A stretch of DNA of 32,000 bases from contig NZ_CP006873.1 in NCBI RefSeq assembly GCF_000709555.1, positions 90,001-122,000 of the forward strand, in the 5' to 3' direction. The position numbers were made by a program, and so were the translations under genes. The notes beneath the pieces were generated by a model, which worked only from the letters and a program-made list of their open reading frames with translations, was not told where the DNA came from and did no database searches. Positions 7,958-28,195 of this stretch are shown one piece after another. Positions within the stretch are counted from its first letter, which is position 1, and every line of letters starts with the position of its first letter. This DNA is from Candidatus Saccharimonadota bacterium (lineage in GTDB: Bacteria; Bacteroidota; Bacteroidia; Flavobacteriales; Blattabacteriaceae).

Positions 7958-7963
7958 TTAGTC

Positions 7964-9688: not shown

Positions 9689-9689
9689 C

Positions 9690-12600
9690 ATGTATTTGAT
9701 TTTTGATACTGAAACCAATGGTTTACCGGAAAATTATGATACCGAGAAGTCGCCGCGTATGGTTCAACTCGCTTGGCAATTGTATGATGAGACCTTTGAA
9801 AGGATTGAGGTAAAAAACTTTATTGTCAAATCTGAAGGATTTGATATTCCTTTTAATTCGGTTAAAATTCATGGTATTACTGCTGAAAGATCTCTAAGAG
9901 AAGGATATCCTTTACAGGATGTTCTTATTTGTTTTAAAAAAGCTCTGGAGAAAAGTCAATTTCTAATTGGTCATAATATTGCTTTTGATATCAACGTTGT
10001 CAGTTGCGAATTCTTTAGAAAGAATTATCCGAATTTGTTTTTGCAAAAAACTGTTTTAGATACTAAAGATGAATCTATAAATTATTGTGCTTTTAAGGGA
10101 AGAGGAAGAGGTAAAAAATTTAAATGGCCCACTCTGACTGAACTATATTATAAACTTTTTGGTACCAATTTTCCGCAAGCGCATAATGCTGCAGCTGATG
10201 TTGAGGCTACAGTGCATTGCTTTGTTGAATTATTACGTTTAGGTGTCATCTCAGTTGATAAATTAGGGATCGATCAATTTAGAGTAAAAAAATTCATACA
10301 AAAAGTTAAATCTCTGAAGATAAGTCCTATCGGTCAAAACGTCTGTACAGAATTCCGTCAACGGAAAGTTCATCCTGTAGAAAAACCTGCACAGATAAAT
10401 AATTTGCGAGCCAAATTTGCGCAGATCCACAATCATACGACTTTTTCGATTTTATCAGCTACTACAGACGTATCATCTCTGGTCAAACGTGCATTTCAAT
10501 GGGGAATGCCTGCGGTAGGAATTACTGATTACGGTAATCTTATGGGATCTTTTTCCTTTTTGAAAGAAATAGAGAAAGCCAATGCTCAAATTGATCAAAA
10601 ATCGAAGACCCTTAAGGGAATTATAGGTTGTGAAATTTTTATGTCAGAAAATGATATTAAAAAAAAAATTACTAAAGATCATCCTGATATACGTTACAAA
10701 CAAGTTTTTTTAGCAAAGAATAAAAATGGTTATCAGAACCTATCTAAACTTTGTTCTGAAGGTTACATAAATGGACAATATGCACCCCGAGTAGGTAAAG
10801 AACTGATTCTGCAATATAAGGAAGGTCTAATAACTTTTACAGGATATCTTGATTCTGAAATTCCATCCACAATCCTTAATCAGGGAGAAATCCAGGGAGA
10901 AGAAATTTTTAAATGGTGGCATAACACTTTTAAAGATGATTTTTATGTAGAACTTTTCCGTCACGGATTAGAGGAAGAAGATTATGTTAACGAAGTATTA
11001 CTTAGATTTTCAGAAAAATATAATGTAAAATATATACCCCAAAATAATAGCTTTTATTTAGATAGGGAAGATGCTAATGCTCATGATATTCTGCTTTGTG
11101 TCCGAGATAGAGAAAAAAAGTCTACCCCAATAGGCTCAGGGAGAGGATATCGTTTTGGATTTAGGAACCAGGAGTTCTATTTTAAAAGTGCTTCTCAGAT
11201 GATTGAGAATTTTTCAGATTTCCCTAAATCCTTTGATTATTTAGAGGAGTTAATAAATAAAATCAGTCATTATTCTCTAGAAAGAGAAGTTATATTACCT
11301 CATTTTGAAATTACTAAAGTTGCATATGAGGGGCAACGTGGAGAAAATGCCTATCTGAGTTATTTAGCTTATCAAGGGGCAGAAAAACGTTATGGAAAAC
11401 TCAGTAAAAGATTGCGAGAACGCTTGGAATTTGAATTGAATACCATAGAGAGAACAAGATACCCTGGTTATTTTCTTATTGTTCAAGATATTGTGGCACA
11501 GGCTAAAAAAATGGGAATATCTGTTGGTCCAGGGAGAGGATCGGGAGCTGGGTCTTTGGTAGCTTACTGTATAGGTCTTACACAGATAGATCCTATCCGA
11601 TACAATCTCCTTTTTGAGCGTTTTTTAAATCCTGATAGAATATCTATGCCAGATATAGATATAGATTTTGATGACCGTGGTCGTGACAGAATAATAGCAT
11701 GGATAGTAAAAAAATATGGGCGAAAACAAGTTGCTAAAATTATTACCTATAGTAGGATGGGAGCTAAATCTGCTATACGAGATTCCGCCCGTGTTCTTGA
11801 TCTTCCATTAGCAGAGGCAGATCGTTTAGCTAAAATGATGCCTAATCTTTCGTTGAAAGAACTTTTTTCGTCCACACAGATCCAAGAAAAAATTCATGTA
11901 TTTGACCTCGAAAACGCATTAAAAATTAAACAAATTTCCCAAGAACAGAATCTTGAAGGAAAAGTTTTACGACAAGCAAGTGTTATTGAAGGATCTCTGA
12001 GAAATATCGGAGTCCATGCTTGCGGAATTATCATCACCCCATCCGACATTACTAATTATATCCCAGTAGCTATTTCCAAGGATTCAGATTTGCTTATTAC
12101 ACAATTTGATAATAATTGGGTCGAAAATGCTGGACTCCTAAAAATAGATATTTTAGGTCTCAAAACACTAACTATTATTAAAGATAGCATCAAATTAATC
12201 GAAACCCGTCATGGATTAATCCTCAATCCTAATCAATTCCCTTTAGATGATCCCAAAACTTCTAAACTTTTCCAACGAGGAGATACCGTAGCAGTATTCC
12301 AGTACGAGTCATATGGGATGAAAAGTTATATACGTAAACTCAACCCTGACAATTTCGATGACCTCATTGCAATTAATGCACTTTATCGACCAGGTCCATT
12401 ACAATATATACCAAATTTTATTGCCCGGAAACATGGGAAGGAATCTATAACATATAGTTTCCCTGAAATGGAAGAATTCCTTAGCAGTACTTATGGGATT
12501 ACTATTTATCAAGAACAAGTAATGTTGTTGGCTCAAAAGCTTGCAGGATTTGGTAAGGGAGAGGCTGATGTCTTACGTAAGGCTATGGGAAAAAAGCAAA

Positions 12601-13943
12601 AACCCGTACTTGATCAAATGAAAAGTAAGTTTATAGAAGGAGCTGTCCAGAAAGGATATACAAAAAAAATCTTAGAAAAAATTTGGACTGATTGGGAATC
12701 CTTTGCTTCCTATGCTTTTAATAAATCACATTCTACTTGTTATGCGAATCTTGCTTTTCAAACCGCTTATCTAAAAGCTCATTACCCGTCTGAATATATG
12801 GCAGCAGTATTGAGTAATAATATGCACAACCTCAAGGAAATTATTTTCCTGATGGAAGAATGTCGTCGTCTAGGAGTATTAGTACTTTGTCCCGATATTA
12901 ATGAAAGCTATTATACTTTTTCGGTCAATGAAAAAGGAGCTATACGTTTTGGCATGGGAGCTATAAAAGGTATAAGGGAAGCTTCGATAGAAGCTATTCT
13001 ACAGGAACGTGAAAAAAAAGGGATTTATCGTTCCATTTTTGATTTAGTAAAGAGAGTTGATTTCCGGATAGTGAATAAAAAGACTTTAGAGTCTTTAGTA
13101 CTTTCAGGAGCTTTTGATAGCTTTAGCAATGTTCATCGTGCACAATATTTTGACAAAAAAAAAAATTGTTTCACTGCTCTTGAAAAAATTATCCGTTTTG
13201 GAGAAAAATATCAGAATAGCAAACAAAAAAACCAGTGTTCTCTTTTTCAAGAGGAACCCGTATTACCATATTGTACTCCCTGGCCAAATCTTATTAAACT
13301 CCTGAAGGAAAAAGAAGTCATTGGGATCTACATTAGTTCTCATCCATTATATGATTATCGTCAGGAAATTCTAGCTATAGAAGGTATTCCTCTTCAAGAA
13401 TTCAATAGAAATGAATATAAATGGAGAGGTAAAGAAGTAAATCTCTATGGAATCATTCTTCGGTTCGAAAAAAAAATATCTGTAAAAAACAATAGTCGAT
13501 ATGGAGTATTTACTCTAGAAGATTATCAAGGAACGCGGGAGTTCAGAATATTTGGCGCATATTATACAAAGTATGCTTATTTACTTGTGCCAAATACTTT
13601 GATCCATCTTAAGATAATACTTAGTAACTTTAAAATACTTAGTAACTTTCAAAAGTTCCGTGTCAGCTTCTTGAACATTCAACTGCTTGACAATGTATTG
13701 AATTCGACAGATAAAGATCTTTATTTGAAGATCGATTTAGAAAGGTTAGATAATGAAATGATTAATAATATTGAACAGACGATTTCAAAGTATAAGGGTT
13801 CTAGAAAATTAAAGGTCATCCTGTTATATCATCAAGGTAAAAGATATATGGGTATGTTATCTAGGAGTTATGGAGTTAGTATAGAACGTGGATTAGTATC
13901 AGATTTAGAACAAATTCCCAACATTTCCTTAAATCTTTCTTAA
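9690..13943 (+). CDS. dnaE: DNA polymerase III alpha subunit with fused N-terminal DnaQ-like DEDDh 3'-5' exonuclease domain
   Basis: The likely start is ATG 9690 (MYLIFDTETNGLP); the track start 9660 lies inside the ackA fossil. The Exo motifs are DTETNG, GHNIAFDINVV and HNAAADVEAT. These are followed by the PHP motif (IHNHTTFSILSATTD), the polymerase core (GPGRGSGAGSLVAYC, PDIDIDF, GVHACGIIIT, ALYRPGP) and a C-terminal OB region. Confidence 0.95.
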   Translation: MYLIFDTETNGLPENYDTEKSPRMVQLAWQLYDETFERIEVKNFIVKSEGFDIPFNSVKIHGITAERSLREGYPLQDVLICFKKALEKSQFLIGHNIAFDINVVSCEFFRKNYPNLFLQKTVLDTKDESINYCAFKGRGRGKKFKWPTLTELYYKLFGTNFPQAHNAAADVEATVHCFVELLRLGVISVDKLGIDQFRVKKFIQKVKSLKISPIGQNVCTEFRQRKVHPVEKPAQINNLRAKFAQIHNHTTFSILSATTDVSSLVKRAFQWGMPAVGITDYGNLMGSFSFLKEIEKANAQIDQKSKTLKGIIGCEIFMSENDIKKKITKDHPDIRYKQVFLAKNKNGYQNLSKLCSEGYINGQYAPRVGKELILQYKEGLITFTGYLDSEIPSTILNQGEIQGEEIFKWWHNTFKDDFYVELFRHGLEEEDYVNEVLLRFSEKYNVKYIPQNNSFYLDREDANAHDILLCVRDREKKSTPIGSGRGYRFGFRNQEFYFKSASQMIENFSDFPKSFDYLEELINKISHYSLEREVILPHFEITKVAYEGQRGENAYLSYLAYQGAEKRYGKLSKRLRERLEFELNTIERTRYPGYFLIVQDIVAQAKKMGISVGPGRGSGAGSLVAYCIGLTQIDPIRYNLLFERFLNPDRISMPDIDIDFDDRGRDRIIAWIVKKYGRKQVAKIITYSRMGAKSAIRDSARVLDLPLAEADRLAKMMPNLSLKELFSSTQIQEKIHVFDLENALKIKQISQEQNLEGKVLRQASVIEGSLRNIGVHACGIIITPSDITNYIPVAISKDSDLLITQFDNNWVENAGLLKIDILGLKTLTIIKDSIKLIETRHGLILNPNQFPLDDPKTSKLFQRGDTVAVFQYESYGMKSYIRKLNPDNFDDLIAINALYRPGPLQYIPNFIARKHGKESITYSFPEMEEFLSSTYGITIYQEQVMLLAQKLAGFGKGEADVLRKAMGKKQKPVLDQMKSKFIEGAVQKGYTKKILEKIWTDWESFASYAFNKSHSTCYANLAFQTAYLKAHYPSEYMAAVLSNNMHNLKEIIFLMEECRRLGVLVLCPDINESYYTFSVNEKGAIRFGMGAIKGIREASIEAILQEREKKGIYRSIFDLVKRVDFRIVNKKTLESLVLSGAFDSFSNVHRAQYFDKKKNCFTALEKIIRFGEKYQNSKQKNQCSLFQEEPVLPYCTPWPNLIKLLKEKEVIGIYISSHPLYDYRQEILAIEGIPLQEFNRNEYKWRGKEVNLYGIILRFEKKISVKNNSRYGVFTLEDYQGTREFRIFGAYYTKYAYLLVPNTLIHLKIILSNFKILSNFQKFRVSFLNIQLLDNVLNSTDKDLYLKIDLERLDNEMINNIEQTISKYKGSRKLKVILLYHQGKRYMGMLSRSYGVSIERGLVSDLEQIPNISLNLS
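13617..13652 (+). repeat. In-frame 18-bp tandem duplication inside the dnaE C-terminal region
   Basis: atacttagtaactttaaa (13617-13634) is immediately followed by atacttagtaactttcaa (13635-13652), with 17/18 identity. It encodes ILSNFK|ILSNFQ. Confidence 0.9.
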
Positions 13944-13958
13944 GAAGATCCTCTCTCG

Positions 13959-15734
13959 ATGAAAATAAAAGTCAGAACTACTAATGCTGATGACACGAAA
14001 TATGTTGTAGTTATTTGTCAACAAATCGAGGAATCTGCCAAGATACGTAGAACCGGCATTGCTAAAAGGGATCCAGAATATGTAAAAAAAAAAATTACTG
14101 AAGGTCATGCTGTAATAGCTTTTTGTGACGGAATACTTGCTGGATTTAGTTATATAGAAACTTTTCAGGACAGACAATTCGTTGCTAATTCTGGTCTTAT
14201 TGTATTTCCAGAATTTCGGAATAAAGGAGTGGCCAAGCTAATTAAATCAGAAATCTTTCAACTATCTAGAAACAAATTTACGAAGTCAAAGATATTCAGT
14301 ATTACGACTAACATTTCAGTGTTAAAAATGAATATGGACTTGGGTTTCAAACCTGTACCTATAACAGTACTTCCCAAATCGGAAGACTTTTGGAAAGGAT
14401 GTAGAAGTTGTACAAACTATGATATTCTCACTAGACATAACCGAAAAATGTGTTTATGTAGCGGGATTTTATATGATCCTAGTGAAAAAAAATCTAATAA
14501 AAAATTACTTTTTGGGTATAAAAAATTATTTTTTGGTGATAAAAAATTACTTTTTGGGGATAAAATTTTACTTGCTTACAGTGGTGGTCTAGATACCTCT
14601 TATTGTTTAAAATTCCTAACCCAACAGGGTTTTCATGTGTATACAGCTATCGTAAATACTGGAGGTAGTAGTGAAAAAGAATTAATTGATATCGAAAAAA
14701 AGGCTTATGCTATAGGAGCCAAATTTCATCGAAATATAGAAGCAAAAGATGATTTTTATCAGCATTGTATAAAATATCTGATATTCGGAAATATTCTACG
14801 TAATCATACTTATCCCTTATCAGTAAGTGCCGAAAGAATTTTTCAAGCTATTAAAATAGCAGAATATGCTAATGAAATCAATGCTAAAGCCATAGCTCAC
14901 GGTAGTACCGGTGCTGGTAATGACCAGATCCGTTTTGATTTAGCCTTTCAAATATTGTGTCCTAATAAAATTATTATAAGCCCAATCCGGGATCTGAAAC
15001 TTTCACGAAAGGAGGAAATGGATTATTTACGTGAGCATGGAGTGGACATATTATGGGAAAAAGCGCAATATTCCCTGAATAAGGGTCTTTGGGGAACTAG
15101 TGTTGGAGGTAAAGAAACGCTGACTTCGAACCAAAATTTCCCAGAAGGAACCTATCCCAACTCTTTACAAGAGTTTAAGCCTCAAAAAATCCAACTAACT
15201 TTCTCAAAAGGGGAATTGATCGCTATCAATGGAGAAGTTACCGATCCAGTGGAAAATATAGTTCGTTTAGAGAGGATTGCTTCTCGTTTTGCTATAGGTC
15301 GTGATATTCATGTAGGTGATACACTTATTGGAATTAAAGGACGTGTAGGATTCGAAGCATCTTCAGCTCTGATAATTCTCAAGGCTCATCACCTTCTTGA
15401 AAAACATGTTCTTAGTAAATGGCAGATTTATTGGAAAGAACAATTGGGGAATTGGTATGGGATGCTTTTGCACGAAGCGCAATACTTCGATCCGGTTATG
15501 CGTGATATTGAAGCTTTTTTTATGAATTCTCAAGAAAGAGTTAGCGGAATTGTAAGCGTACAGTTGCATCCTTATCGTTTTGAACTTATAGGCATTGAGT
15601 CACCTTTTGATCTTATGCAGACTCAAAAAACAAAATATGGGGAAGAAAATGAGTCCTGTAGTTCTGAAGAAGCTAAAGGATTTATTAAAATATTTGGAAC
15701 CCCGATGAAAATTTATCACAGTATTAATCCCTAA
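13959..15734 (+). CDS. argG: Single ORF fusing a GNAT-family acyltransferase domain (arginine-cluster ArgA-like) to argininosuccinate synthase
   Basis: 591-aa ORF. Residues 1 to about 180 form a GNAT fold (GLIVFPEFRNKGVAKLI) with a Cys-rich tail (GCRSCTNY...KMCLCSG). From LLAYSGGLDTS onward it is canonical ArgG (AHGSTGAGNDQIRF, ...GRVGFEAS). No stop and no ATG/GTG/TTG lie between the two domains. Confidence 0.85.
   Translation: MKIKVRTTNADDTKYVVVICQQIEESAKIRRTGIAKRDPEYVKKKITEGHAVIAFCDGILAGFSYIETFQDRQFVANSGLIVFPEFRNKGVAKLIKSEIFQLSRNKFTKSKIFSITTNISVLKMNMDLGFKPVPITVLPKSEDFWKGCRSCTNYDILTRHNRKMCLCSGILYDPSEKKSNKKLLFGYKKLFFGDKKLLFGDKILLAYSGGLDTSYCLKFLTQQGFHVYTAIVNTGGSSEKELIDIEKKAYAIGAKFHRNIEAKDDFYQHCIKYLIFGNILRNHTYPLSVSAERIFQAIKIAEYANEINAKAIAHGSTGAGNDQIRFDLAFQILCPNKIIISPIRDLKLSRKEEMDYLREHGVDILWEKAQYSLNKGLWGTSVGGKETLTSNQNFPEGTYPNSLQEFKPQKIQLTFSKGELIAINGEVTDPVENIVRLERIASRFAIGRDIHVGDTLIGIKGRVGFEASSALIILKAHHLLEKHVLSKWQIYWKEQLGNWYGMLLHEAQYFDPVMRDIEAFFMNSQERVSGIVSVQLHPYRFELIGIESPFDLMQTQKTKYGEENESCSSEEAKGFIKIFGTPMKIYHSINP
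14499..14582 (+). repeat. 21-bp tandem repeat array (3 clear copies plus 1 degenerate copy) forming the GNAT-ArgG linker
   Basis: The copies are aaaaaattactttttgggtat (14499-14519), aaaaaattattttttggtgat (14520-14540) and aaaaaattactttttggggat (14541-14561). A fourth, aaaattttacttgcttacagt (14562-14582), is the start of the ArgG core. The translation is KKLLFGY|KKLFFGD|KKLLFGD|KILLAYS, in frame with ORF 13959. Confidence 0.9.
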
Positions 15735-16702
15735 TGATTCAAATAGGAATATTAGGGAGTTCAGGATATACCGCTGGGGAACTATTACGTCTTTTGTTAC
15801 ATCATCCTAAAGTACAGATAAAAAGTGTGGTAAGCAGTACTCAATCTGGGATTGAGGTTTCCAAAATTCATCAGGATTTACTAGGTGATACTGAATTATG
15901 CTTTACTGATCATTTGGAGGATGTCGAGGTAGTATTTTTATGTCTTGGTCATGGGCATTCTAGAAATGCTGTTAAAAAAATTTCAACAAATAGTTGCATT
16001 ATTGATTTAAGTCATGATTTTAGGCTTTCAAAAAATGCCCATTTTTCAGGCAGAAACTTTGTATATGGTTTACCAGAATTGCAACGTCAAGCCATTAAAA
16101 AAGCAAAAAACATTGCTAATCCAGGTTGTTTTGCTACAGCTATAGAACTTCCTTTGTTACCACTAGCTAAAGAAAGATGGCTTGATAACGATATTCATAT
16201 AAGTGCTATTACAGGTTCTAGCGGATCAGGACGTCTATTGAGAGAAAGTAATCATTTCAGTTGGAGAGTAAATAATGTTACTACTTATAAAGTGTTTACC
16301 CATCAGCATTTAAAAGAAATTAGAGAGGTATTGTTCCGATTGTGTCCTAGCTTTAATAAAAAACTCTTTTTTGTACCCTACAGAGGTAATTTTTCCCGGG
16401 GAATATTTGCTACGTTATACACATATTGCAAGGCTCCTCTTCAGGAAGTTGAGTTCCTTTATCAAGAATTTTATAAAAATCATCCTTTTACACATCTTTC
16501 TAAAGATCCATTATGTCTCAAACAAGTGGTGAATACCAATAAATGTTTATTGCACTTAATGAAAGAGAAAGAACAGTTGATTATCAGTAGTGTTATAGAT
16601 AATCTGGTTAAAGGAGCCGCAGGCCAAGCAGTTCAGAATATGAATCTGATGTCCAACTTGGAAGAAGTTATGGGTTTACAGATAAAATCTATCGCATTTT
16701 GA
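15734..16702 (+). CDS. argC: N-acetyl-gamma-glutamyl-phosphate reductase
   Basis: 322-aa ORF with IGILGSSGYTAGELLRLLLHHP and the active-site context NPGCFATA. Its start overlaps the argG stop by 1 nt (TAATG). Confidence 0.95.
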   Translation: MIQIGILGSSGYTAGELLRLLLHHPKVQIKSVVSSTQSGIEVSKIHQDLLGDTELCFTDHLEDVEVVFLCLGHGHSRNAVKKISTNSCIIDLSHDFRLSKNAHFSGRNFVYGLPELQRQAIKKAKNIANPGCFATAIELPLLPLAKERWLDNDIHISAITGSSGSGRLLRESNHFSWRVNNVTTYKVFTHQHLKEIREVLFRLCPSFNKKLFFVPYRGNFSRGIFATLYTYCKAPLQEVEFLYQEFYKNHPFTHLSKDPLCLKQVVNTNKCLLHLMKEKEQLIISSVIDNLVKGAAGQAVQNMNLMSNLEEVMGLQIKSIAF

Positions 16703-17381
16703 AAATTCATTTGATGTGTATTCTACAATTCCTACTAGAATTAGTAAAAGGTTCCTTTTCGATAAGGAAGGAAACAAATATCTAGATTTTTATGGAGGAA
16801 TCTCTATTGGACATCCGTGAAATCTTTAATCGATTCCCCAACGCAATTTAAAAATTGCATCTTTTCATAACAGAAAAAACAAGATAATTTCATTCAAAAA
16901 AGCTTTTCATGGTCTGACTATAGGAGCGTTATCCATTACAGATAATCCGAAAATAGTTACTTCTTTTAATGACAAATTTGATAGAATAATTCTGGATCAG
17001 GAAGGGAGTGTACTGAAGGTAATCAGAGAGTAGCTGGCATTATAGATCCTGGGGTAGATTTTTTTCGAGGAATATTGTCGTAAGTACAATGTTCCTCTTA
17101 TTCGAGATGAAATTCAAAGTGGTATGGATTTCCTTTAGGAGGTGTGCTCCTTATTTCAAAGCTTTTCATGGGTTTTAAAAGTTATTAAAAATGAATGTAT
17201 GATTGAAAATGTCCTCAAATAAAGAGGATTAGTGGCTTGATGTTGTTATTTTCCTGTCTACAACTTAAGAGAGAGAAAAAGTGGGTACAACCTAATATTT
17301 TACGTGTTTTGCCTCCTCTCAGTATATCTAATTCTCAGGCTATGTGTTTTGTACGAAAGTTGAAGAGTGCTTTAGCTTATC
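16699..17381 (+). pseudogene. argD: Acetyl/succinyl-ornithine aminotransferase pseudogene
   Basis: No ORF of 60 aa or more. Fragments in shifting frames are FDVYSTIPTRISKRFLFDKEGNKYLDFYGGISIGHP*, ..KKAFHGLTIGALSITDNPK...FNDKF, LIRDEIQSG (cf. LIxDEVQxG) and NILRVLPPLSISNSQAM..LKSAL (cf. LRxxPPLxI). About 0.68 kb remains of about 1.15 kb. The PLP-lysine region is not recognisable. Confidence 0.8.
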
Positions 17382-17396
17382 TTGAATATCTTGAAA

Positions 17397-18482
17397 ATGA
17401 ATGATCCTATCGCTCGTTTAATCCTTCAAAAGGATGATAAAGAATATATTGGACATCTTTTTGGAGCACCTGTTTCTTCTTCTGGAGAAGTTGTTTTTAA
17501 TACTTCCATGACAGGTTATACAGAAAGCCTTACTGATCCATCTTATAAAGGACAGTTATTGGTCTATACCTATCCTATTATTGGTAACTACGGAATCCCC
17601 AATATAGGTAAAAATATATCAGATTTTTCTGAATCAGAAAACATACATATTAACGGTTTAATCATTTCTGATTATTCACATCATCCTTACCATTGGAACA
17701 TGAGATATAGTCTTTCGTATTGGTTGAAAAAGAATGGGGTTCCTGGAATCTATGGAATAGATACTCGTGCATTGACCAAAAAAATTCGTGAAGAAGGGAC
17801 GATGTTAGGAAAAATTATCATCAATCATGATATCCCATTTTATGATCCTAATCAGGAAAATCTAGCATCTAAGGTGTGTATTAATGAAAAAACTATATAC
17901 GGACATGGAAAATACAAGGTGTTGCTGGTTGATTTAGGAGTAAAGAACAATATCTTGCGCTGTTTGCTTAACCGAAATTGCCAGATAATACGTGTGCCAT
18001 GGTCTTCTGATTTTTCCAAAGAAGACGACTATGATGGTATTTTGCTTTCTAATGGACCAGGTAATCCTAAGACTTATCATAAGGTTATAAAACACGTGGA
18101 GTATGCCCTTAAAGATAATCGTCCTATCTTTGGAATTTGTCTTGGAAATCAATTAATTGGTCTCGCTGCAGGAGTGAATACCTTTAAACTAAAATATGGG
18201 CATCGCGGCTATAACCAACCAGTTTTGCTCGAAGGGACCTCTAAGGCATACATAACTTCACAAAATCATGGATACGTCCTTGACGTACAAATTTTGCCTC
18301 CAAACTGGAAAATTTTATTTCAAAATATCAACGACGGATCTTGTGAGGGATTAATACATGAAAATAAACCTTTCTTTTCAGTTCAATTTCATCCAGAAGC
18401 CTCTGGTGGACCTATAGATACCGAATTTTTATTTGATTGGTTTATAGAATGCATGCATTCATCCAATAAATTATATAGATGA
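17397..18482 (+). CDS. carA: Carbamoyl-phosphate synthase small (glutamine amidotransferase) subunit
   Basis: The likely start is ATG 17397 ([14 protein letters not shown]); the track start is TTG 17382. Motifs are [23 protein letters not shown] (catalytic Cys) and FHPEASGGP. There is an ATGA overlap with carB. Confidence 0.95.
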
Positions 18483-21400
18483 AAAAAATTCTGGTTATTG
18501 GTTCTGGGGCTTTGAAAATTGGAGAGGCAGGAGAATTTGATTATTCAGGAACACAAGCCTTAAAAGCAATTAAAGAAGAGGGAATAGAGACTATTTTAGT
18601 GAATCCTAATATCGCTACAGTGCAAACCTCTGAAGGTATAGCCGATAAAATTTATTTTCTTCCTATTTACCCAAAATTTATTAAAAAAGTCATCGAAAAA
18701 GAAAAACCTAGTGGACTTTTGTTATCCTTCGGAGGACAAACAGCATTAAATTGTGGCGTGAAACTGTTTGAAAAAGGTGTATTGAAAAAACATGTTCTAA
18801 AAGTTTTAGGTACTCCTATAGAGTCTATTATTGCTAGTGAAGATAGAGATATTTTTCGAGATAAACTCAATACTATGAATATCAAAACGGCTCGTGGTAT
18901 AGTGGTACATTCTCTGGAAGAAGCCTTTTCGGCCTCTGAAGAAATAGGCTTCCCTATAATTATAAGAACTTCTTATGCCTTAGGAGGACTGAGTAGTGGA
19001 TTTGCTCACGATAAAAAGGAATTGGCAACATTGATAGACATAGCTTTATCACATTCTTCACAAATCCTTATAGAAGAATCCCTGAAAGGTTGGAAGGAAA
19101 TAGAATATGAAGTCATGTGCGACCGATACGGAAATTGTATTACGGTATGCAATCTGGAAAATTTCGACCCCATTGGTATACATACAGGAGACAGCATAGT
19201 AGTAGCTCCTTCACAAACTCTTCCTAATTCTGAATATCAGAAACTTCGCACATTTTCTCTGTCTATTGCCCGTGCTTTTGGAATAATAGGAGAATGTAAT
19301 GTGCAGTTCGCTTTATCCCCAAATTCTGAGGATTATCGTCTTATTGAAATAAATGCAAGACTTTCTCGTTCAAGTGCTTTAGCTTCTAAAGCTACGGGAT
19401 ATCCAATAGCCTTTATAGCAGCAAAACTAGCCTTAGGCTATGGTTTACATGAATTAAAGAATTATGTTACCCAAACTACTTCTGCTTTTTTTGAACCGTC
19501 TCTTGATTATGTAGTGTGCAAATTTCCTCGTTGGGATTTAAAAAAATTCTCCCGATCATCTACCCAAATTGACAGTAGTATGAAAAGTGTGGGTGAAGTT
19601 ATGTCTATAGGAGGATCCTTTGAAGAAGCGTTCCAGAAAGGATTACGGATGCTTGATATAGGATTAGAAGGATTCATCAATCCTAAAAAAAAAAGATGAC
19701 ACTCTTGAAAAACGTCTTATAATTCCTACCGATCAGCGAGTAAAAGCGCTGGAAGCTGCTTTTGATGAAGGCTACACAGCAGAAAAACTTTATGATCTTA
19801 CACGTATTGATCTTTGGTTTCTTTACAAGCTTCGCAATATTCATCACACAAAAAAAATACTATCACGGTACAAAAAGTATGAAGATTTACCTAAAAATAT
19901 TTTTTATTTAGCCAAAAAGCAAGGATATTCAGATCGACAAATAGGAGCTATTCTTAGCCCTGACGAACATATGTCTATATCTTCTTCTATGGTTCGTAAT
20001 ATACGAAAAACTCTCAAAATTTTTCCTCACGTACGTCGTATAGACACTTTATCAGCTGAATATCCAGCATATACCAACTACTTGTATATGAGTTATCATG
20101 CTTATCGTCATGATATTGATTACGAAGGGGATGGACGGTCAGTAGTAGTTTTAGGATCTGGTGTGTATCGTATAGGTAGTAGTGTAGAATTTGATTGGTG
20201 TTGTGTGAACACATTAAAGGTTCTTCATTCTGAAGGTTATCGATCGATAATGATCAACTGTAATCCTGAAACTGTCAGTACAGATTTTGACGAATGTGAA
20301 AGATTATATTTTGAAGAACTCACTCTAGAACGTGTGCTAGATATTCTAGAACTAGAAACCCCGAAAGGGACGATTGTATCTATGGGAGGACAAATTTCCA
20401 ACAATCTTGCATTCCCACTCCATCAAAATAAGCAAAGAATTTTAGGAAGCTTAGCCACTTCTGTAGATGAAGTAGAAGACCGTTATAAGTTTTCCAAAGC
20501 TTTGGATATCCTAGGCATAGAACAACCTATGTGGAAAGAATTTTCTAAGATGAACGATATTCAGACCTTTATTAGAGAGGTCGGATATCCGATATTAATC
20601 CGACCATCGTATGTCCTATCAGGTTCAGGAATGAACGTAATTTTTAATGTAGAAGAACTTAGATACTTTTTTGATAAATTGGAGACGTCTGAACATTCAG
20701 TAGTGATAAGTAAATTTATAGAAAATGCTAAAGAAATAGAACTAGATGCTGTGGCTCATAAAGGTGATCTTATTTATCATGCCGTCTCCGAGCATATAGA
20801 ATTTGCTGGATTACATTCAGGAGATGCTACTTTAGTATATCCTCCGCAAAATATTTACTTATCTACGTTCCAAGAAATCGAACGTATTTCTAAACAAATT
20901 GCACAATATTTTCATATTTCAGGACCTTTTAATATACAGTTTATTTCTAAAAATAACCGAATTCAAGTAATAGAGTGCAATTTACGAGCTTCCAGAAGTT
21001 TTCCTTTTATTTCTAAAGTCTCTGGATTTAATATGATCCGATTAGCTACTGAAGTAATGTTAGGAAAACTCACGAATCCTTGTGGAATTTTTTTTTCTTT
21101 TAATTATATAGGTGTAAAAGTTTCGTACTTCTCCTTTTCACGTCTTCCAGGGACAGATCCTGTCCTAGGTGTAGATATGGTTTCTACAGGTGAAGTAGGT
21201 TGTTTGGGAAACAATTTTTATGAGTGCCTCATAAAAGCTATGTTGTCTGCTGGCTTTAGCGTCCCTGTCAAGCATCTTTTAATTTCAGGAGAAATTTCTT
21301 CTTTAAAAGAAGATTTTATTAATACTATTAAACTATTGGTGTATAAGGGATATAAACTGTTTTCGACAGAGGAGATATATCCATTTCTTATGGATTATGG

Positions 21401-21665
21401 TTTAACTTCAAAGCTATTGTCCTGGCCAGGTGTGCATCATTTCCCCAATGTCTTTGACTATCTTCGAAAGAAAAAAATTTATTTCATTATCAATATTCCT
21501 CATAACAAATATTCCGAAATAGATAATAACTATACTCTAAGACGCTCAGCAGTAGATTTCAATATTCCGCTTTTAACTAATACTAGTTTAGCTAAAGCCT
21601 TTATAAGAGCTTTCTGTAAAGAAGAACTAACTATAGCAGAATGGAAAAGTTATCTAACAGTATGA
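18479..21665 (+). CDS. carB: Carbamoyl-phosphate synthase large subunit, one gene split into two ORFs by a +1 frameshift inside an A10 tract
   Basis: ORF 18479-19699 holds ATP-grasp 1 ([22 protein letters not shown]...). Read one nucleotide forward from the A-run, the frame continues without stops. It reads [46 protein letters not shown]...[12 protein letters not shown]...[21 protein letters not shown], which is the oligomerisation domain. That frame joins ORF 19971-21665 (ATP-grasp 2 plus the MGS-like tail). After the correction the gene is about 1061 codons, the normal CarB size. Confidence 0.9.
19685..19694 (+). repeat. A10 homopolymer at the carB frameshift site
   Basis: The sequence is cct-aaaaaaaaaa-gatgac. 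With 10 A the frame hits TGA at 19697-19699. With 9 A the frame reads [10 protein letters not shown]... and stays open to 21665. Confidence 0.95.
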
Positions 21666-22625
21666 ACCGATTTTTTAGTGTTCAAGATATTCCTAATGTC
21701 CCTGTTTTGGTAAAGGAGGCATTATCTCTTAAAAAAGCTCCTTATATAGAACTTGTCAAAAAAAAATAAGATTATAGGATTAGTATTTTTTAATCCAAGC
21801 TTGAGAACACGGTTGAGCAGTCAAAAAGCTGCTTTTCACCTAGGTTGCGATACTTGGACACTAAATATAGATCATGATTCTTGGAAAATAGAGATGAATG
21901 ATGGTGACGTTATGGACCGTCACTCCCAAGAACATATAAAAGAAGCCGTTGGAGTGATGAGTTTATATTGCGATATATTAGGTGTTCGAACCTTTCCTGG
22001 ACTAAAAAATAGAGATTCTGATTATAAAGAAATTCTTTTTAAGAATATAGAAAATTATTCTCACGTTCCGATAGTTAATTTAGAAAGTGCTACACGTCAT
22101 CCCTTGCAATCTTTAGCTGATGCTATGACCATTGAAGAGTGTCGTGTTCCTGGAAACCCGATAAAAGTAGTACTTAGTTGGGCCCCTCATCCTAAAGCTT
22201 TACCACATTCTGTGCCTAATTCTTTTATAGAATGGATTTCCAAATTACCTAATACTGATCTAATAATTACTCATCCTATTGGATATGAGCTTGATAAAGA
22301 AATTACTAAAAATACAAATATTCTTTATAATCAAGAAGAAGCCTTAAAGTATGCAGATTTTATTTATGCCAAAAATTGGAGCAGTTATACCTATTACGGG
22401 AAGATTCTATGTGATGACACTAGATGGATGATTACTTGTGAGAAGATGGACCTTACTAATAAGGCAAAATTTATGCATTGCCTCCCCATCAGACGTAATG
22501 TAGTAGCTGAAGACGCTGTTCTAGATTCCTATATTTCTTTGATTTTTCAAGAGGCTGAAAATAGGATCTTCGCTTCTAAGGCTATTTTCAAAAGGATATT
22601 GAACGCATCATCATGTTGCATATAG
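21662..22625 (+). CDS. argF': N-acyl (acetyl/succinyl)-L-ornithine carbamoyltransferase, interrupted by a +1 frameshift inside an A9 tract
   Basis: ATG 21662 (ATGA overlap with the carB stop) gives [35 protein letters not shown], the family N-terminus. ORF 21753-22625 continues as KIIGLVFFNPSLRTRLS..., HPLQSLAD and HCLP in the frame one nucleotide forward. Removing one A joins them with no other lesion. Confidence 0.85.
21758..21766 (+). repeat. A9 homopolymer at the argF' frameshift site
   Basis: The sequence is gtc-aaaaaaaaa-taag. With 9 A the first frame ends at TAA 21767-21769. With 8 A it reads ELVKKNKIIGLVFFNPSLRTR. Confidence 0.95.
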
Positions 22626-23386
22626 TTAAAATAGGAGGAAAAATTATTGATGATAAAGCTTTATTAAATCCCTCTCTTGAAAATTTTCATGCATTGAATG
22701 GTCCTAAAATTTTGGTCCATGGAGGAGGAAAATCTGCTAATTTCCTTTCTCATAAGATGGGACTACGGACACAAATAATAGAAGGCCGAAGAATTACAAA
22801 TCGTACCACTATAAATGTGGTAGTGATGAGTTATGCTGGTCTTACAAACAAGACTTTGGTAGCACGTTTACAAGCAATAGGCTGTAATACTATAGGACTT
22901 TCTGGGGCTGATGGAAATCTCATTCGTTCTAATCGAAGACCTGTAAAAAGTATAGATTATGGATATGTAGGTGATTTATATGAAAAAAGTATTAATATCT
23001 ATAATCTTTCGACTCTTATGAAAGTTGGTTTTGTCCCTGTATTTTGTGCTATTACTCATGATGGTAAAGGAAATTTGTTAAATACTAATGCCGATGCTAT
23101 AGCTTCATTTTTAGCTATTTCTTTGTCTAAGACCCATAAAACAGTTTTACATTTTTGCTTAGAAAAAAAAGGTGTCCTCCGTAAGTCTAATGAGGAAGAT
23201 TCTTTTTTAGAAAAAATGAATGTTGATGACTTTAGAAAATTTAAACAAGAAAATCTCATTACAGGAGGAATGATTACGAAATTAGAAAATGCCTTTGAAG
23301 CCTTGCAAAAAGGAGTGAATCAAGTAAACATAGGTCATCCTTACTATTTGAATAAATCTAAGGAGAAAACAATTCTTTGTTTATAA
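22613..23386 (+). CDS. argB: Acetylglutamate kinase
   Basis: 257-aa ORF with MLHIVKIGGKIIDD, ILVHGGG and LLNTNADAIAS. It overlaps the argF' 3' end by 13 nt. Confidence 0.9.
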   Translation: MLHIVKIGGKIIDDKALLNPSLENFHALNGPKILVHGGGKSANFLSHKMGLRTQIIEGRRITNRTTINVVVMSYAGLTNKTLVARLQAIGCNTIGLSGADGNLIRSNRRPVKSIDYGYVGDLYEKSINIYNLSTLMKVGFVPVFCAITHDGKGNLLNTNADAIASFLAISLSKTHKTVLHFCLEKKGVLRKSNEEDSFLEKMNVDDFRKFKQENLITGGMITKLENAFEALQKGVNQVNIGHPYYLNKSKEKTILCL

Positions 23387-23402
23387 ATTTATTGAAACCT
23401 AA

Positions 23403-23718
23403 ATGTATGATACAAGAAATAAAAGATAACAGGCATCCCTTCTGATTGCTTCTAAAAAACTATCTCTAGTATATTTCTGGGCTCCTTGGTGTAACTCATG
23501 TAAATCTTTAGCTCCTTTCATAGAAGAGATCTCAGAAAAGTATGATGGAAAAGTTTTAATAATAAAAATAAATGTAAATGATAATACAAAAACTGTTTAT
23601 GAACATGGAATAAAAAGTATTCCTACATTAATATGTTTTAAAAATGGAAAAGAAATATGCAGGAGTGAATTCTCAAAATCCTTTAACTAAGGAATTAGAT
23701 AAATTAATTTGTAAGTAG
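23403..23718 (+). pseudogene. trx: Thioredoxin pseudogene (in-frame TAA at codon 9 plus a C-terminal frameshift)
   Basis: The translation is MYDTRNKR*QASLLIASKKLSLVYFWAPWCNSCKSLAPFIEEISEKYDGKVLIIKINVNDNTKTVYEHGIKSIPTLICFKNGKEICRSEF. The expected C-terminus, NSQNPLTKELDKLICK*, is found only in the frame one nucleotide forward. No ATG/GTG/TTG lies between the TAA and the WCxxC motif. The motif is WCNSC rather than the canonical WCGPC. Confidence 0.8.
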
Positions 23719-23792
23719 GGTCTGGTAGTTCAGCTGGTTAGAATACGTGCCTGTCACGCATGTGGTCACGGGTTCAAGTCCCGTCCAGATCG
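23719..23792 (+). tRNA. tRNA-Asp (anticodon GUC)
   Basis: The sequence folds by hand as GGTCTGG-TA-GTTC-AGCTGGTTA-GAAT-A-CGTGC-CTGTCAC-GCATG-TGGTC-ACGGG-TTCAAGT-CCCGT-CCAGATC-G. It forms a cloverleaf with a 7-bp acceptor stem (one G-U pair), a GTC anticodon and a TTCAAGT T-loop. It closely resembles E. coli tRNA-Asp. CCA is not encoded. Confidence 0.95.
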
Positions 23793-23868
23793 CTAATCGT
23801 CATTGTGAAATAAAGACGACTGTTTTTATTTTTTATTAGACTGCAAGCTATTATAGAGAGTTCTCTGC

Positions 23869-24777
23869 TTAAACTTTCCTCCAGTCCGTAAAGGAAGGTC
23901 TTTTGAAACTGTTGTCGAAATGCGTGGTGGTTTCGTGTAAATGCAGCTTCTCTGTTACTTTCCCAGGCTCTCGCCCTTTAAAAGTATGGGAAATTCTGTA
24001 AAATTCGGAGGTCTGCTTCAAAAAGCTCAAAACAATCTTCACAATCAAATTATGGTAAGAAGAACTCGTGCTAACGTAGAAAGTTTCTTTATGATTACCA
24101 TTCTACTGATCATTGTGGAGACAACAATAAGCGGGGTATTCATTCTATCTCGGTGCAGTAATATTCATTGATAGATCGTTCACAACAAATAGATGCAGGG
24201 TCGTGAGGCAGAATATTAAAAATCCTAGAAGTAATCGTTTATGAATTACAAGTGCTTAATTCCTCAGTCCTTTAAACATAGGACAAATATTTTAAGATTT
24301 CGTTAAGATCGCCAACCTTAATTTACCTGTGAAATGTCTTTCGGAGTCCGGGAAGATATTTTCTTTTCTTTTCTTTTTGAAGAACTCATATCATATCTTT
24401 TCGATATTCAATTGAATACTCCTTTCCTTCGTATTCCCTATCGGACACCGCTTTGTAATGAGGATTCTCTGCAATTCCAGGTCGTACACAGGGTAAGACG
24501 TCCACGACTTTCTGGAAAAACTAAACAACTAGGAGAATTGCGCCTTGAAATGGTGACGGGAAATAATGGATACAGCTCCTTTGTTAAACCTTAAAAAGTC
24601 CGTAAAAGAGGTGCTATAAGAATTCATAAAAGAGAGGAAAAGTTTTAAATATGGTGCTCTTGTATTATTCGGGTAGGAAAATCTCATCGCTTTTCCAATA
24701 TTATGATAGATAGCCCATCAAAATTGAATAAGACACAATTATCTGAACTCGGATTTATATAGACCTAGTTTAAACAT
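23869..24777 (-). pseudogene. icd: Decayed isocitrate dehydrogenase-like gene (beta-decarboxylating dehydrogenase family; icd favoured over leuB)
   Basis: Minus-strand translation gives collinear islands in shifting frames matching remembered E. coli Icd blocks. They are VLFNFDGLSII (cf. PYIEGDGIG), TSFTDFLRFNKGAVSII (cf. [20 protein letters not shown]) and QGAILLVV*FFQKVVDVLPCVRPGIAENPHYK (cf. [24 protein letters not shown]...SPVK). They continue with SDREYEGKEYSIEY (24386-24520 block, cf. FRENSEDIYAGIEW), KENIFPDSE (cf. KKIRFPEH), ALVIHK (cf. TLVHKG) and ILPHDP...INEYY (cf. ILLRPAEYDV...NLNGDY). The two plus-strand track ORFs here are antisense to this fossil. Confidence 0.45.
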
Positions 24778-24825
24778 CAGATCCGGTCTCTTTTTCTTGA
24801 AGCTCTTGTAAAAGAATTATCAGTT

Positions 24826-27253: not shown

Positions 27254-28195
27254 ATGCAAAAAAATGCCATAAAAATATTTTCTCCAGCTACTATTGCTAA
27301 TGTTTCTTGCGGATTCGATGTTATTGGTATGGCATTAGAAAGACCCGTTGATGAAATTATCTTAAGAAAATCATCCCATTCTGGGATCCGTATTCTTAAT
27401 ATACATGGAGCCAGACTTTCGACCCGACCGGATAAAAATGTAGTTGGGGTAGTTCTCTATACCATGTTAAATCAGCTTCCTAACATCAAATATGGGTTAG
27501 AAGTAGAAATCTTTAAGAATATCCAGCCTGGAAGTGGCATTGGTTCTAGTGCTGCTAGTGCTGCCGGAGCAGCCGTGGGGGCTAACCTTTTGCTAGGAGA
27601 TCGTTTTACCACAACTGAACTTGTCAAGATTGCCATGGAAGGAGAAAGATTCGCCAGTGGAATTGCACATGCAGATAATGTAGCCCCAGCAATCATGGGC
27701 GGATTTACTCTTGTAAGAAGTTATCATCCTCTAGATCTAGTTGAACTGCACGTACCAAAAAATTTGTGGGCAACCGTACTTCATCCTAAGATAGAAATTA
27801 AAACTTCTGAAGCAAGAGAAATACTTAAAAAAAAAGTCCTAATGAGTGATGCTATTAAGCAATGGGGTAATGTAGGAGCACTTATAGCAGGGCTTTATCA
27901 GGAAAATTATGAACTTATTAGCCGATCTCTGGAAGATGTCATTGTTGAACCAGTACGGTCTATACTTATTCCGTCTTTTTACAAGCTGAAAATGGAATGT
28001 AAAAAAGCAGGGGCCCTTGGAGGAAGTATTTCTGGTTCAGGTCCATCAGTATTTATGCTAAGTTGTGGTAAAGCAAAAGCCCAATACGTAGCTAAGTGCA
28101 TGGATGAGATATATGCAAAATTAGGAATAGATTATACCATCTATGTTTCTCCCATTAATTCTCAAGGAATACAATGGGAATGGATCACAGAATAA
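27254..28195 (+). CDS. thrB: Homoserine kinase
   Basis: 313-aa ORF with FSPATIANVSCGFD and the GHMP kinase motif PGSGIGSSAASAAGA. Confidence 0.95.
   Translation: MQKNAIKIFSPATIANVSCGFDVIGMALERPVDEIILRKSSHSGIRILNIHGARLSTRPDKNVVGVVLYTMLNQLPNIKYGLEVEIFKNIQPGSGIGSSAASAAGAAVGANLLLGDRFTTTELVKIAMEGERFASGIAHADNVAPAIMGGFTLVRSYHPLDLVELHVPKNLWATVLHPKIEIKTSEAREILKKKVLMSDAIKQWGNVGALIAGLYQENYELISRSLEDVIVEPVRSILIPSFYKLKMECKKAGALGGSISGSGPSVFMLSCGKAKAQYVAKCMDEIYAKLGIDYTIYVSPINSQGIQWEWITE

Follow-up and report, generated by a model that had tools for sequence, protein, structure and literature searches.

A poly(A) frameshift in argF' shared across the endosymbiont genus Walczuchella, probably tolerated through RNA-polymerase slippage

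Slippage-rescued frameshifts have been described in the insect endosymbionts Buchnera and Blochmannia (Tamas et al. 2008, Wernegreen et al. 2010, Williams & Wernegreen 2010, PMC3017870), where 12-50% of the transcripts of genes with poly(A) frameshifts are corrected (Tamas 2008, as summarised in PMC5009743) and where such frameshifts are conserved between species (PMC3017870). Closer to the present locus, the main text of a recent comparison of Walczuchella genomes flags carB, trpC and mnmE as poly(A/T) pseudogenes "potentially rescuable by transcriptional slippage" (Choi et al. 2025, PMC12188211), and the possibility of slippage rescue had been raised before in the genome paper of strain LLAX (PMC3971599). 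Here, we describe argF', the gene adjoining carB, which the LLAX genome paper lists, as argF, among the genes not found (PMC3971599) and which does not figure on the list of rescuable pseudogenes in the main text of Choi et al. (2025, PMC12188211; supplementary per-gene lists apart). We consider it probable that argF' carries a tolerated ancestral frameshift whose rescue would most likely occur through slippage of RNA polymerase on an A run. The gene thus most likely represents a further case of the poly(A)-frameshift rescue already known from other insect symbionts, to judge from the likeness between the systems: in each, an AT-rich, drift-dominated insect endosymbiont harbours a biosynthetic gene whose only defect is one indel within an A run of at least 9 nt, and the lesion is conserved between species without further decay. 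On the other hand, Buchnera and Blochmannia are gammaproteobacteria in which slippage has been measured, whereas Walczuchella belongs to the Bacteroidota and is known here from sequence alone; besides, the frameshifts of the former are common to two or three species, while that of argF' is found in the whole sampled Walczuchella genus. The same genomes and the same proposed mechanism are involved in the case of carB, trpC and mnmE, yet the lesion in carB is restricted to certain lineages and differs in kind, as set out below.

The window, i.e. the whole stretch of DNA that was analysed, spans 32,000 nt of the genome of Candidatus Walczuchella monophlebidarum strain LLAX, a flavobacterial endosymbiont of a scale insect. 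The arginine genes within it are arranged as follows.

13959..18482, + strand: upstream arginine operon (argG, argC, argD remnant, carA)
13959-15734, + strand: argG with an N-terminal GNAT-like extension
15734-16702, + strand: argC
16703..17381, + strand: eroded remnant of argD (class-III aminotransferase), the local contrast for a dead gene
17382-18482, + strand: carA
18479..19699, + strand: 5' part of carB, ending at a TGA that results from a frame break at the A10 tract 19685-19694; pN/pS = 0.155
19695..21665, + strand: 3' part of carB in the +1 frame, its listed ORF beginning only at 19971; pN/pS = 0.34
21662..21769, + strand: 5' segment of argF', 35 codons with a conserved ATG, ending at the frameshift-induced TAA 21767-21769; N-terminus kept in orthologues
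21758..21766, + strand: A9 tract of argF', one A more than the in-frame A8; proposed slippage or recoding site
21768..22625, + strand: 3' segment of argF', codons 36-320 plus stop in the +1 frame, within the listed ORF 21753-22625; SLRTR, HPLQ and HCLP motifs
22613..23386, + strand: intact argB (acetylglutamate kinase family), overlapping the 3' end of argF'; pN/pS = 0.33

An earlier note on this DNA had placed the start of argF' at ATG 21662, in an ATGA overlap with carB, and had described an A9 run (21758-21766) that leads in this frame into TAA 21767-21769; direct reading of the sequence confirms each of these points, ATG 21662-21664 overlapping the carB stop codon TGA 21663-21665. As also claimed there, removal of one A joins the upstream frame of argF' to ORF 21753-22625, giving a predicted product of 320 aa (...ELVKKNKIIGLVFFNPSLRTR...) with the junction-spanning peptide ELVKKNKIIGLVFFNPSLR and, across the tract, the predicted restored-frame peptide APYIELVK/KNKIIGLVFFNPSLR. 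Homology identifies this predicted product as ArgF', an N-acetyl/N-succinyl-ornithine carbamoyltransferase. It carries the OTCace_N and OTCace domains together with the SxRTR, HPxQ and HCLP motifs, its closest known counterparts including the N-acetylornithine transcarbamylase of Xanthomonas (3kzc), and NCBIfam NF003384 (N-acetylornithine carbamoyltransferase) is by far its best family, with a match of 281.7 bits that stays under the equivalog cutoff of 288. The best match in the PDB is the N-succinyl-L-ornithine transcarbamylase of Bacteroides fragilis (1js1, 2fg6), the 1js1 structure aligning end to end with the restored protein (residues 1-314, E = 5e-91). One difference between the two concerns Pro90 of the B. 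fragilis enzyme, a position that presumably decides between succinyl and acetyl specificity, with Pro90 standing for succinyl and Glu92 for acetyl. LLAX ArgF' and all of the best 120 flavobacterial relatives have Gln at this position, so that the acyl group (acetyl vs succinyl) is left unassigned for the Walczuchella enzyme; in PDB 2g7m, Pro90 of B. fragilis is mutated to Glu.

The alignment with Bacteroidetes transcarbamylases, which the earlier note had named as the check on the restored N-terminus, begins at Met1 of the B. fragilis enzyme. Orthologues lacking the 35-residue N-terminal segment were sought among the best 120 database relatives, where 116 of 116 non-Walczuchella proteins cover at least 95% of restored ArgF'; the relatives inspected start with MKxFxS...KNKT(I/L)G. 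By these comparisons, the N-terminal segment of argF' is genuine. Could the functional protein nevertheless be an N-terminally truncated one that starts past the break, for example at TTG 21753, the 35-codon upstream piece being irrelevant? All database annotations give such a shortened protein, only N-truncated ArgF' of 270-293 aa being annotated in the seven published genomes and in a further chromosome assembly from Icerya purchasi (OZ034981, 288,648 bp), and the 32 N-terminal codons, when taken alone, are without significant constraint in an underpowered test (3 synonymous and 5 nonsynonymous changes, p = 0.25). However, in the Icerya/Crypticerya-type lineages (L001, L060, L067) an in-frame TAA comes directly after TTG 21753, and the next canonical start, inside SLRTR, would cost the protein strand beta-1 and the Ser of this motif. 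ATG 21662 and the 32 codons, by contrast, are free of indels and stops in all seven lineages compared. Hence, the aligned sequences offer no usable internal start common to the lineages, and a truncated product is very improbable. ATG 21641, the start chosen by the ORF lister, was rejected for argF', as orthologues and 1js1 align from ATG 21662; in L001 and L060 it is out of frame because of an 8-nt deletion there.

We compared the tract in seven Walczuchella lineages (LLAX, L058/L059, L061/L062, L065, L060, L001 and L067) that cover both subclades and derive from independent assemblies. All seven share the +1 lesion, as GTC-A9-TAA in LLAX, the Drosicha-type lineages and L065 or as GTA-A9-TAA in the Icerya/Crypticerya-type lineages, where a substitution (GTC>GTA) made the run an A10 and left the total length the same. 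The nearest outgroup, L063, reads GTT-A8-T, is in frame and encodes VKKNK. The frameshift is therefore older than the sampled Walczuchella radiation: the sequences place it before the split of the two known subclades, with every sampled descendant retaining an out-of-frame run. Upon removal of one A, all seven sequences give proteins of 320-323 aa without internal gaps or stops, in which SLRTR, HPLQS and HCLP are invariant. The earlier claim that one extra A in a homopolymer is the only disabling change in argF' thus holds for all seven lineages.

The earlier note had also considered a homopolymer sequencing bias. That the true tract is A8 and the extra base an artefact of sequencing or assembly might be suspected, as 454 reads, which tend to err at homopolymers, went into the LLAX assembly; this assembly (HiSeq + 454), though, reached 1571x with its HiSeq coverage, and the same extra base is present in six PCR-free Illumina genomes, in the OZ034981 chromosome and in reference-free Logan and ENA contigs, together representing the seven lineages. 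The A10 of the Icerya/Crypticerya-type lineages, moreover, arose by substitution at unchanged length. Because independent assemblies all agree on the extra base, an artefact is ruled out, and this explanation is effectively refuted. A related proposal, phase-like heterogeneity, finds no support at the consensus level. On this view, the enzyme would come from a minority of genome copies with A8 that replication slippage generates in a polyploid symbiont, in the manner of phase variation. In its favour, long A runs tend to slip during replication, the length of the carB tract is not the same in all lineages (A10 vs A11), and mismatch repair is largely lost from these symbionts, mutS being present in only three genomes (PMC12188211). 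Nevertheless, the run is out of frame in every consensus assembly; two lineages are represented by pairs of independent samples (L058/L059 and L061/L062), and the members of each pair are identical in tract and flanks at the consensus level; tracts of A9-A11 that are in frame do not vary in length between lineages; and neither an on/off polymorphism of tract length among the assemblies, replicate samples included, nor an in-frame allele in the databases was detected. Likewise, no in-frame Walczuchella ArgF' was found among 5.8 billion protein clusters. We therefore hold heterogeneity at the DNA level to be improbable.

If the gene is out of frame throughout the sampled genus, does it still matter to the symbiont? 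Downstream of the tract, the argF' frame is under purifying selection: the seven lineages differ by 28 synonymous and 43 nonsynonymous changes (pN/pS = 0.40, binomial p = 2e-4), the variable sites being distributed 23/9/37 over the three codon positions, and the LLAX branch by itself has 7 changes of each kind (p = 0.014). For this part of the genome the ratio is on the relaxed side, close to thrA (0.37), argB (0.33) and the 3' part of carB (0.34) and above argC, carA and thrB (0.15-0.18). Of the 7 changes on the Drosicha branch, 6 are nonsynonymous and 1 is synonymous, and the power of all these tests is limited by the low overall divergence (dS about 0.1 between the subclades).

Dead DNA, by contrast, erodes fast in LLAX. 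Relative to the intact argD of L058 (1488-2639), its argD has suffered about 20 deletions of 4-82 nt each in 1150 nt; trx has 2 deletions in 324 nt on the LLAX branch, and the noncoding stretch 23395-24800 differs from L001 by more than 25 indels. At the argD and trx rates, 960 nt should have gained 6-17 indels on the LLAX branch alone, while argF' has 0 (P = 3e-3 to 6e-8), which argues that argF' is not dead. The opposing view is that argF' lost its function in the common ancestor and is a genuine pseudogene throughout Walczuchella that has yet to gain further lesions, the step being supplied by host or co-symbionts. It draws on the accelerated pseudogenisation and the arginine-pathway losses reported for the genus (Choi et al., PMC12188211), on the dead argD of LLAX, on a pN/pS of argF' that is not low, on the small dS between subclades and on P>T changes in the conserved FFNPSLRTR motif in two separate lineages (DRCO and ICSE). 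Against this stand the significant synonymous excess, the invariant catalytic motifs, and the start codon and N-terminal frame that are kept everywhere; in addition, the signs of a pseudogene that were looked for in the seven lineages (omega of about 1, extra indels or stops) did not appear, even though pseudogenes of the same genome gain many deletions within a single terminal branch. We thus regard a wholly inactive argF' as unlikely, and the earlier view that the lesion does not reflect random decay is borne out by one and the same frameshift being fixed in 7/7 lineages of a gene under purifying selection.

How might the frame be restored? We propose that argF' gained one A in an ancestral in-frame A8 run (encoding VKKNK) before the two subclades diverged. 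RNA polymerase would slip on the resulting A9 or A10 run, such that some mRNAs would be one A shorter or two A longer and regain the frame, and a fraction of argF' expression would most likely yield the full-length 320-aa enzyme in this way. The gene shows what one would look for in a slippage-rescued frameshift: one indel, located in a coding-region A/T run of about 9 nt or longer, a reading frame that in seven lineages is otherwise without frameshift or stop, and conservation of the frameshift across lineages along with continued purifying selection. We infer the transcriptional route; +1 slippage of the ribosome on AAA-AAA-AAA-UAA may be an additional or alternative one.

In the latter case the ribosome, not the polymerase, would restore the frame, through a +1 shift of tRNA-Lys on AAA-AAA-AAA while the 0-frame UAA occupies the A site. 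The same VKKNK protein would result from unedited A9 mRNA, a shift anywhere in the run giving the orthologue-like sequence, and the evidence from conservation and selection fits this route equally well; a review covers the "correction" of frameshifts in endosymbionts and organelles as well as effects at poly(A) runs (PMC5009743). A known likeness would be the programmed +1 frameshift of prfB (RF2): there too, a shift-prone codon directly precedes a 0-frame stop, full-length protein arises by the +1 shift, and relatives share the site. A slippery codon followed by the stop (AAA-UAA) is indeed present at argF' in all lineages, but it follows automatically from the addition of one A to AAA-AAA-AAT-AAG and is thus not an evolved feature, and the tRNA would re-pair imperfectly at the last codon (AAA to AAU). 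Unlike prfB, argF' has AAA within a homopolymer as its shift codon rather than CUU, shows no apparent autoregulatory logic, and has no Shine-Dalgarno-like stimulator in the 20 nt upstream of the tract (TATATAGAACTTGTC), the nearest AGGAGG being about 50 nt away. Folding of 21700-21800 revealed no stimulatory RNA structure above shuffled sequences (z = -0.83). Given, besides, that the measured precedent from insect endosymbionts is transcriptional, we consider the ribosome a rather unlikely sole agent and favour slippage of the polymerase.

The neighbouring carB invites comparison, as the earlier note had regarded the two lesions as of the same kind. This applies insofar as removal of one A repairs either frame. 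Seen against its relatives, however, carB has lost a net 5 nt next to the tract, a derived small deletion, and the lesion varies in length (A10 in LLAX; A11 in the Drosicha-type lineages L058, L059, L061 and L062 and in L065) and does not extend to all lineages, given that carB is in frame (A9 + TCTTTAT) in the Icerya/Crypticerya symbionts (L001, L060, L067), with the same form in the outgroup. The argF' lesion, on the other hand, is a clean +1 A in all lineages sampled. The companion claim, that two genes of the pathway are each disabled by a homopolymer and by nothing else, stands for argF', which is otherwise intact, whereas in the same pathway argD is shredded in LLAX. The gene order of the upstream part of the arginine operon is the same in L058, L060 and L064, and argA and argE are reported to be absent from all Walczuchella genomes (PMC12188211). 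With the LLAX pathway broken at argD and lacking argA and argE, the selective value of ArgF' in this strain hinges on intermediates being exchanged between the symbiont and its host or a co-symbiont.

In the Icerya/Crypticerya-type lineages, the boundary between the two genes has itself changed. The 8-nt deletion there removed the carB stop, such that carB runs in frame into Met1 of argF' and terminates only at the TAA made by the extra A. Conceivably, the tract acts as a switch in these lineages, its out-of-frame state being selected, with unslipped mRNA giving CarB with a 35-residue tail and slipped mRNA giving a CarB-ArgF' fusion. Such a fusion would combine carbamoyl-phosphate synthetase and transcarbamylase in a CAD-like manner and could channel carbamoyl phosphate, and selection would then maintain the out-of-frame state of argF' beyond mere tolerance. 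We find this doubtful. The frameshift is instead best seen as a mildly deleterious change that was fixed by drift and is tolerated through leakiness, and not as an evolved regulatory device. In-frame A9 tracts are uninterrupted in all lineages in 3/6 cases, and the argF' tract is no better conserved than these.

The finding corrects the metabolic reconstruction of Walczuchella, in which argF' should count neither as absent, as in the LLAX genome paper, nor as an intact protein of about 290 aa, as in the annotations, but as a full-length gene with one conserved homopolymer frameshift. It also constitutes a clean case from a Bacteroidota symbiont of a poly(A) frameshift that persists across a sampled genus under purifying selection, and supports the view that infidelity of expression buffers gene loss in tiny genomes. 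Within this part of the genome, the genes proposed to be rescued, argF' and carB, carry one homopolymer lesion each, while the dead argD and trx are riddled with deletions; the contrast between a single lesion and many deletions could serve as a practical criterion for classifying "pseudogenes" of endosymbionts. As to the tracts themselves, A/T runs of at least 9 nt are over-represented in the window (19 matches vs 7.9 +/- 3.5 in shuffles), and of the 13 distinct runs of this length only 2 break a frame.

The frameshift in argF', which the earlier note had described as a surplus A in an A9 tract of the gene downstream of carB, is borne out by direct reading of the window sequence (GC ~33%):

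21662-21664, + strand: start codon ATG of argF', overlapping the carB stop codon TGA (21663-21665)
from 21662, + strand: 5' frame of argF', 35 codons running through A9 (21758-21766) into TAA (21767-21769)

Past the tract, the +1 frame is open as far as 22625, and removal of one A gives a 320-aa protein with OTCace_N and OTCace domains. Its top NCBIfam match is NF003384, N-acetylornithine carbamoyltransferase (281.7 bits, below the cutoff of 288), and the Bacteroides fragilis N-succinylornithine transcarbamylase (SOTCase) structure 1js1 aligns with it over residues 1-314 (E = 5e-91). The protein annotated for LLAX, the genome of the window (Candidatus Walczuchella monophlebidarum, 309,299-bp chromosome), is the 290-aa ORF, differing only at its TTG-encoded first residue.

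The restored N-terminus proved genuine: among the best 120 relatives, all 116 non-Walczuchella members cover at least 95% of restored ArgF', 1js1 aligns with it from residue 1, and the only N-truncated members are the four Walczuchella clusters. The relatives inspected begin with MKxFxS...KNKT(I/L)GLVFFNPSLRT. The nearest non-Walczuchella relative (outgroup locus L063; same gene order, 77% amino-acid identity) reads TAC GTT AAA AAA AAT AAA (YVKKNK) at the exact tract site, i.e. an in-frame A8. With this N-terminus in the relatives and the A8 in L063, the earlier reconstruction of the tract as A8 plus one A is correct. Within L063 (3809-7004; ENA ERZ22864839, 3x coverage), argF' is intact, carB lies in four ORFs and argD in two, so that L063 may be a further symbiont in decay or may carry errors from its low coverage. 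The equivalent of B. fragilis SOTCase Pro90, the residue that PDB 2g7m replaces by Glu, is Q89 in ArgF' (window 21926-21928); because Gln also stands there in all of the best 120 flavobacterial relatives, acetyl versus succinyl specificity of the clade is unreadable from this position.

Giant scale insects harbour Walczuchella as an obligate flavobacterial symbiont, for which seven syntenic genomes of 282-309 kb have been published, forming two subclades, Drosicha plus Llaveia versus Icerya plus Crypticerya (PMC3971599, PMC12188211). The window shares 93-97% DNA identity with other Walczuchella genomes, and the argF' locus was compared in seven distinct lineages.

Walczuchella loci compared at argF'
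window: LLAX
L058 / L059: Drosicha corpulenta type (DRCO), chromosome and independent Logan contig
L061 / L062: second Drosicha-type lineage, two runs
L065: ENA/Logan lineage, 95% identical to the window
L060: Crypticerya type
L001: Icerya purchasi chromosome OZ034981
L067: Icerya seychellarum (ICSE)

The out-of-frame length is the same in all seven: LLAX, L065 and the Drosicha-type lineages read GTC-A9-TAA, and the Icerya/Crypticerya-type lineages read GTA-A9-TAA (A10), where a synonymous C>A change leaves the total length unaltered. ArgF' is annotated as 270-293 aa only in all seven published genomes and in the separate I. purchasi chromosome assembly, and a protein collection of 5.8 billion clusters held no in-frame Walczuchella ArgF'. 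Homopolymer sequencing bias, one of the causes the earlier note had put forward, is excluded because independent assemblies of the seven lineages agree on this length (LLAX from HiSeq at 1571x plus 454, the genomes of Choi et al. from PCR-free Illumina data, and the Logan and ENA contigs reference-free). The insertion arose before the two subclades separated and after the divergence from L063.

The frameshift notwithstanding, argF' evolves as a selected gene would, as argued by its synonymous excess and its intact frames when set against the rapid erosion of dead DNA. With one A removed, the seven lineages encode proteins of 320-323 aa that align with zero internal gaps or stops and in which the SLRTR, HPLQS and HCLP motifs are invariant. 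Across the seven lineages, the portion 3' of the tract shows 28 synonymous differences on 176 sites and 43 nonsynonymous ones on 679 sites (pN/pS = 0.40; synonymous excess p = 2e-4), with 23/9/37 variable sites at codon positions 1/2/3; pairwise dN/dS values for argF' (NG86) are 0.26-0.45. Neighbouring genes have pN/pS of 0.33 (argB), 0.37 (thrA) and 0.34 (3' part of carB), or 0.15-0.18 (argC, carA, thrB). On the LLAX branch alone, argF' acquired seven synonymous and seven nonsynonymous changes (p = 0.014). The dead genes used for comparison are:

16703-17381: argD remnant (class-III aminotransferase), reduced from ~1150 to ~680 nt via ~20 deletions of 4-82 nt
23407-23717: trx (thioredoxin), with 4-nt and 8-nt deletions outside any homopolymer

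The decay of argD is strikingly deletion-dominated, its retained blocks being ~97% identical to intact Drosicha-type argD. Thioredoxin is intact (107 aa) in all other lineages, and trx is a recent, LLAX-specific pseudogene; the noncoding stretch 23395-24800 has more than 25 indels relative to L001. Applied to 960 nt and the LLAX branch alone, the trx or argD rate predicts 6-17 indels, and argF' has none there (P = 3e-3 to 6e-8). This lack of indels amid fast local erosion, the synonymous excess and the absence of gaps or stops in seven lineages make it a disfavoured reading that argF' is a slowly decaying pseudogene, although its pN/pS lies toward the relaxed side and the pathway in LLAX is already interrupted at argD, with argA and argE absent (PMC12188211). 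Also on the side of decay, codon 45 shows P>T within the otherwise invariant carbamoyl-phosphate motif FFNPSLRTR in two separate lineages (DRCO, L058/L059; ICSE, L067). Together with the Drosicha branch (one synonymous, six nonsynonymous changes), this may reflect lineage-specific relaxation of argF'.

Full-length protein requires mRNA with one base fewer or two more, or a ribosomal +1 shift. By sequence reasoning, VKK(K)NKIIG results from A8 and A11 transcripts alike, and also from a +1 shift at any point in AAA-AAA-AAA; after a -1 shift, translation would reach a stop in no more than seven codons. RNA-polymerase slippage on the A run would be the favoured route, since the measured precedent is polymerase slippage and signs of a ribosomal device are lacking (no SD-like element or RNA structure indicating a dedicated one was found around the tract); we regard transcriptional rescue of argF' as fairly likely. 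For poly(A)-frameshifted genes of Buchnera and Blochmannia, corrected transcripts make up 12-50% (Tamas 2008, as relayed in PMC5009743); such frameshifts are kept between species without degradation (PMC3017870), and A/T runs of 9 suffice for slippage in bacteria (PMC5009743). Ribosomal +1 slippage on the tract, the main mechanistic rival, seems unlikely, and DNA heteroplasmy at the tract improbable. It is also unlikely that a truncated ArgF' is made from an internal start: in Icerya/Crypticerya-type lineages TTG 21753 runs straight into TAA, the next canonical start falls inside SLRTR, and all members of the family have the N-terminal helix region.

The claim that carB bears the same kind of lesion holds in that deleting one A of A10 at 19685-19694 restores its frame, but the lesion itself is a clade-restricted small deletion beside a tract of unstable length, because tract forms differ among lineages and outgroup. 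Icerya/Crypticerya-type carB is intact, with an in-frame A9 followed by TCTTTAT (KKKSLYD) that matches outgroup L064 (RKSLEKE); the tract reads A10-G in LLAX (net loss 5 nt) and A11-G in the Drosicha-type lineages and L065 (net loss 4 nt), so that two different out-of-frame lengths coexist within one clade. Purifying selection still acts on either half of carB (pN/pS 0.155 and 0.34), and the gene was already named as slippage-rescuable by Choi et al. (PMC12188211). Among the 13 A/T runs of at least 9 in the window, two break a gene (argF', carB), ten leave the frame of intact genes undisturbed (dnaE, argG, thrA, thrB and thrC among these genes), and the last falls within a pseudogene region.

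The Icerya/Crypticerya-type symbionts have lost 8 nt (CTAACAGT) at the equivalent of window 21653-21660, and with this deletion both the stop codon of carB and its ATGA overlap are gone. There, carB enters argF' Met1 in frame and ends at the frameshift-made TAA after the A10 tract, giving read-through ORFs of 1100-1102 aa:

L001, 2806-6108
L060, 3661-6969
L067, 155-3457

A slipped transcript in these lineages would encode CarB fused to ArgF'; that such a protein is made and matters is conceivable, if very doubtful.

The argF' case falls within a class already known, the poly(A) frameshifts of endosymbionts. The LLAX paper raised slippage in general terms and tabulated argF as not found (PMC3971599), and the available portion of the 2025 comparative paper names only carB, trpC and mnmE as slippage candidates (PMC12188211). 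Probably argF' was overlooked because its 5' piece of 35 codons is too short for gene-fragment calling. What is new here is that its lesion is genus-wide, together with the quantitative evidence of selection.

Elsewhere in the window, a tRNA-like sequence adjoins the trx remnant at ~23718. Fragments of trxB (185 aa, partial Pyr_redox_2), pta (133 aa) and ackA (two overlapping ORFs) within 7262-9688 look like eroded pseudogenes, and an A9 run at 8341 falls in this stretch. ArgG (591 aa) has a ~200-aa N-terminal extension (window 13959-14570) with weak GNAT acetyltransferase matches (PF00583, E = 6e-4), which might account for the 'missing' argA-type acyltransferase step; ArgG is similarly long in relatives L063 and L064 (581-590 aa). 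The polymerase gene region is:

9660-13943: dnaE, 1427 aa, with an N-terminal RNase_T-type exonuclease domain (DnaQ-like fusion)

Its in-frame tracts (A10 at 10659, A11 at 13155, A9 at 13468) should be slippage-prone themselves. Lastly, the end of thrB in LLAX (28190-28195) is displaced downstream by one codon, with GAA in place of the other lineages' TAA stop; close upstream of this end there is also a 7-nt difference.
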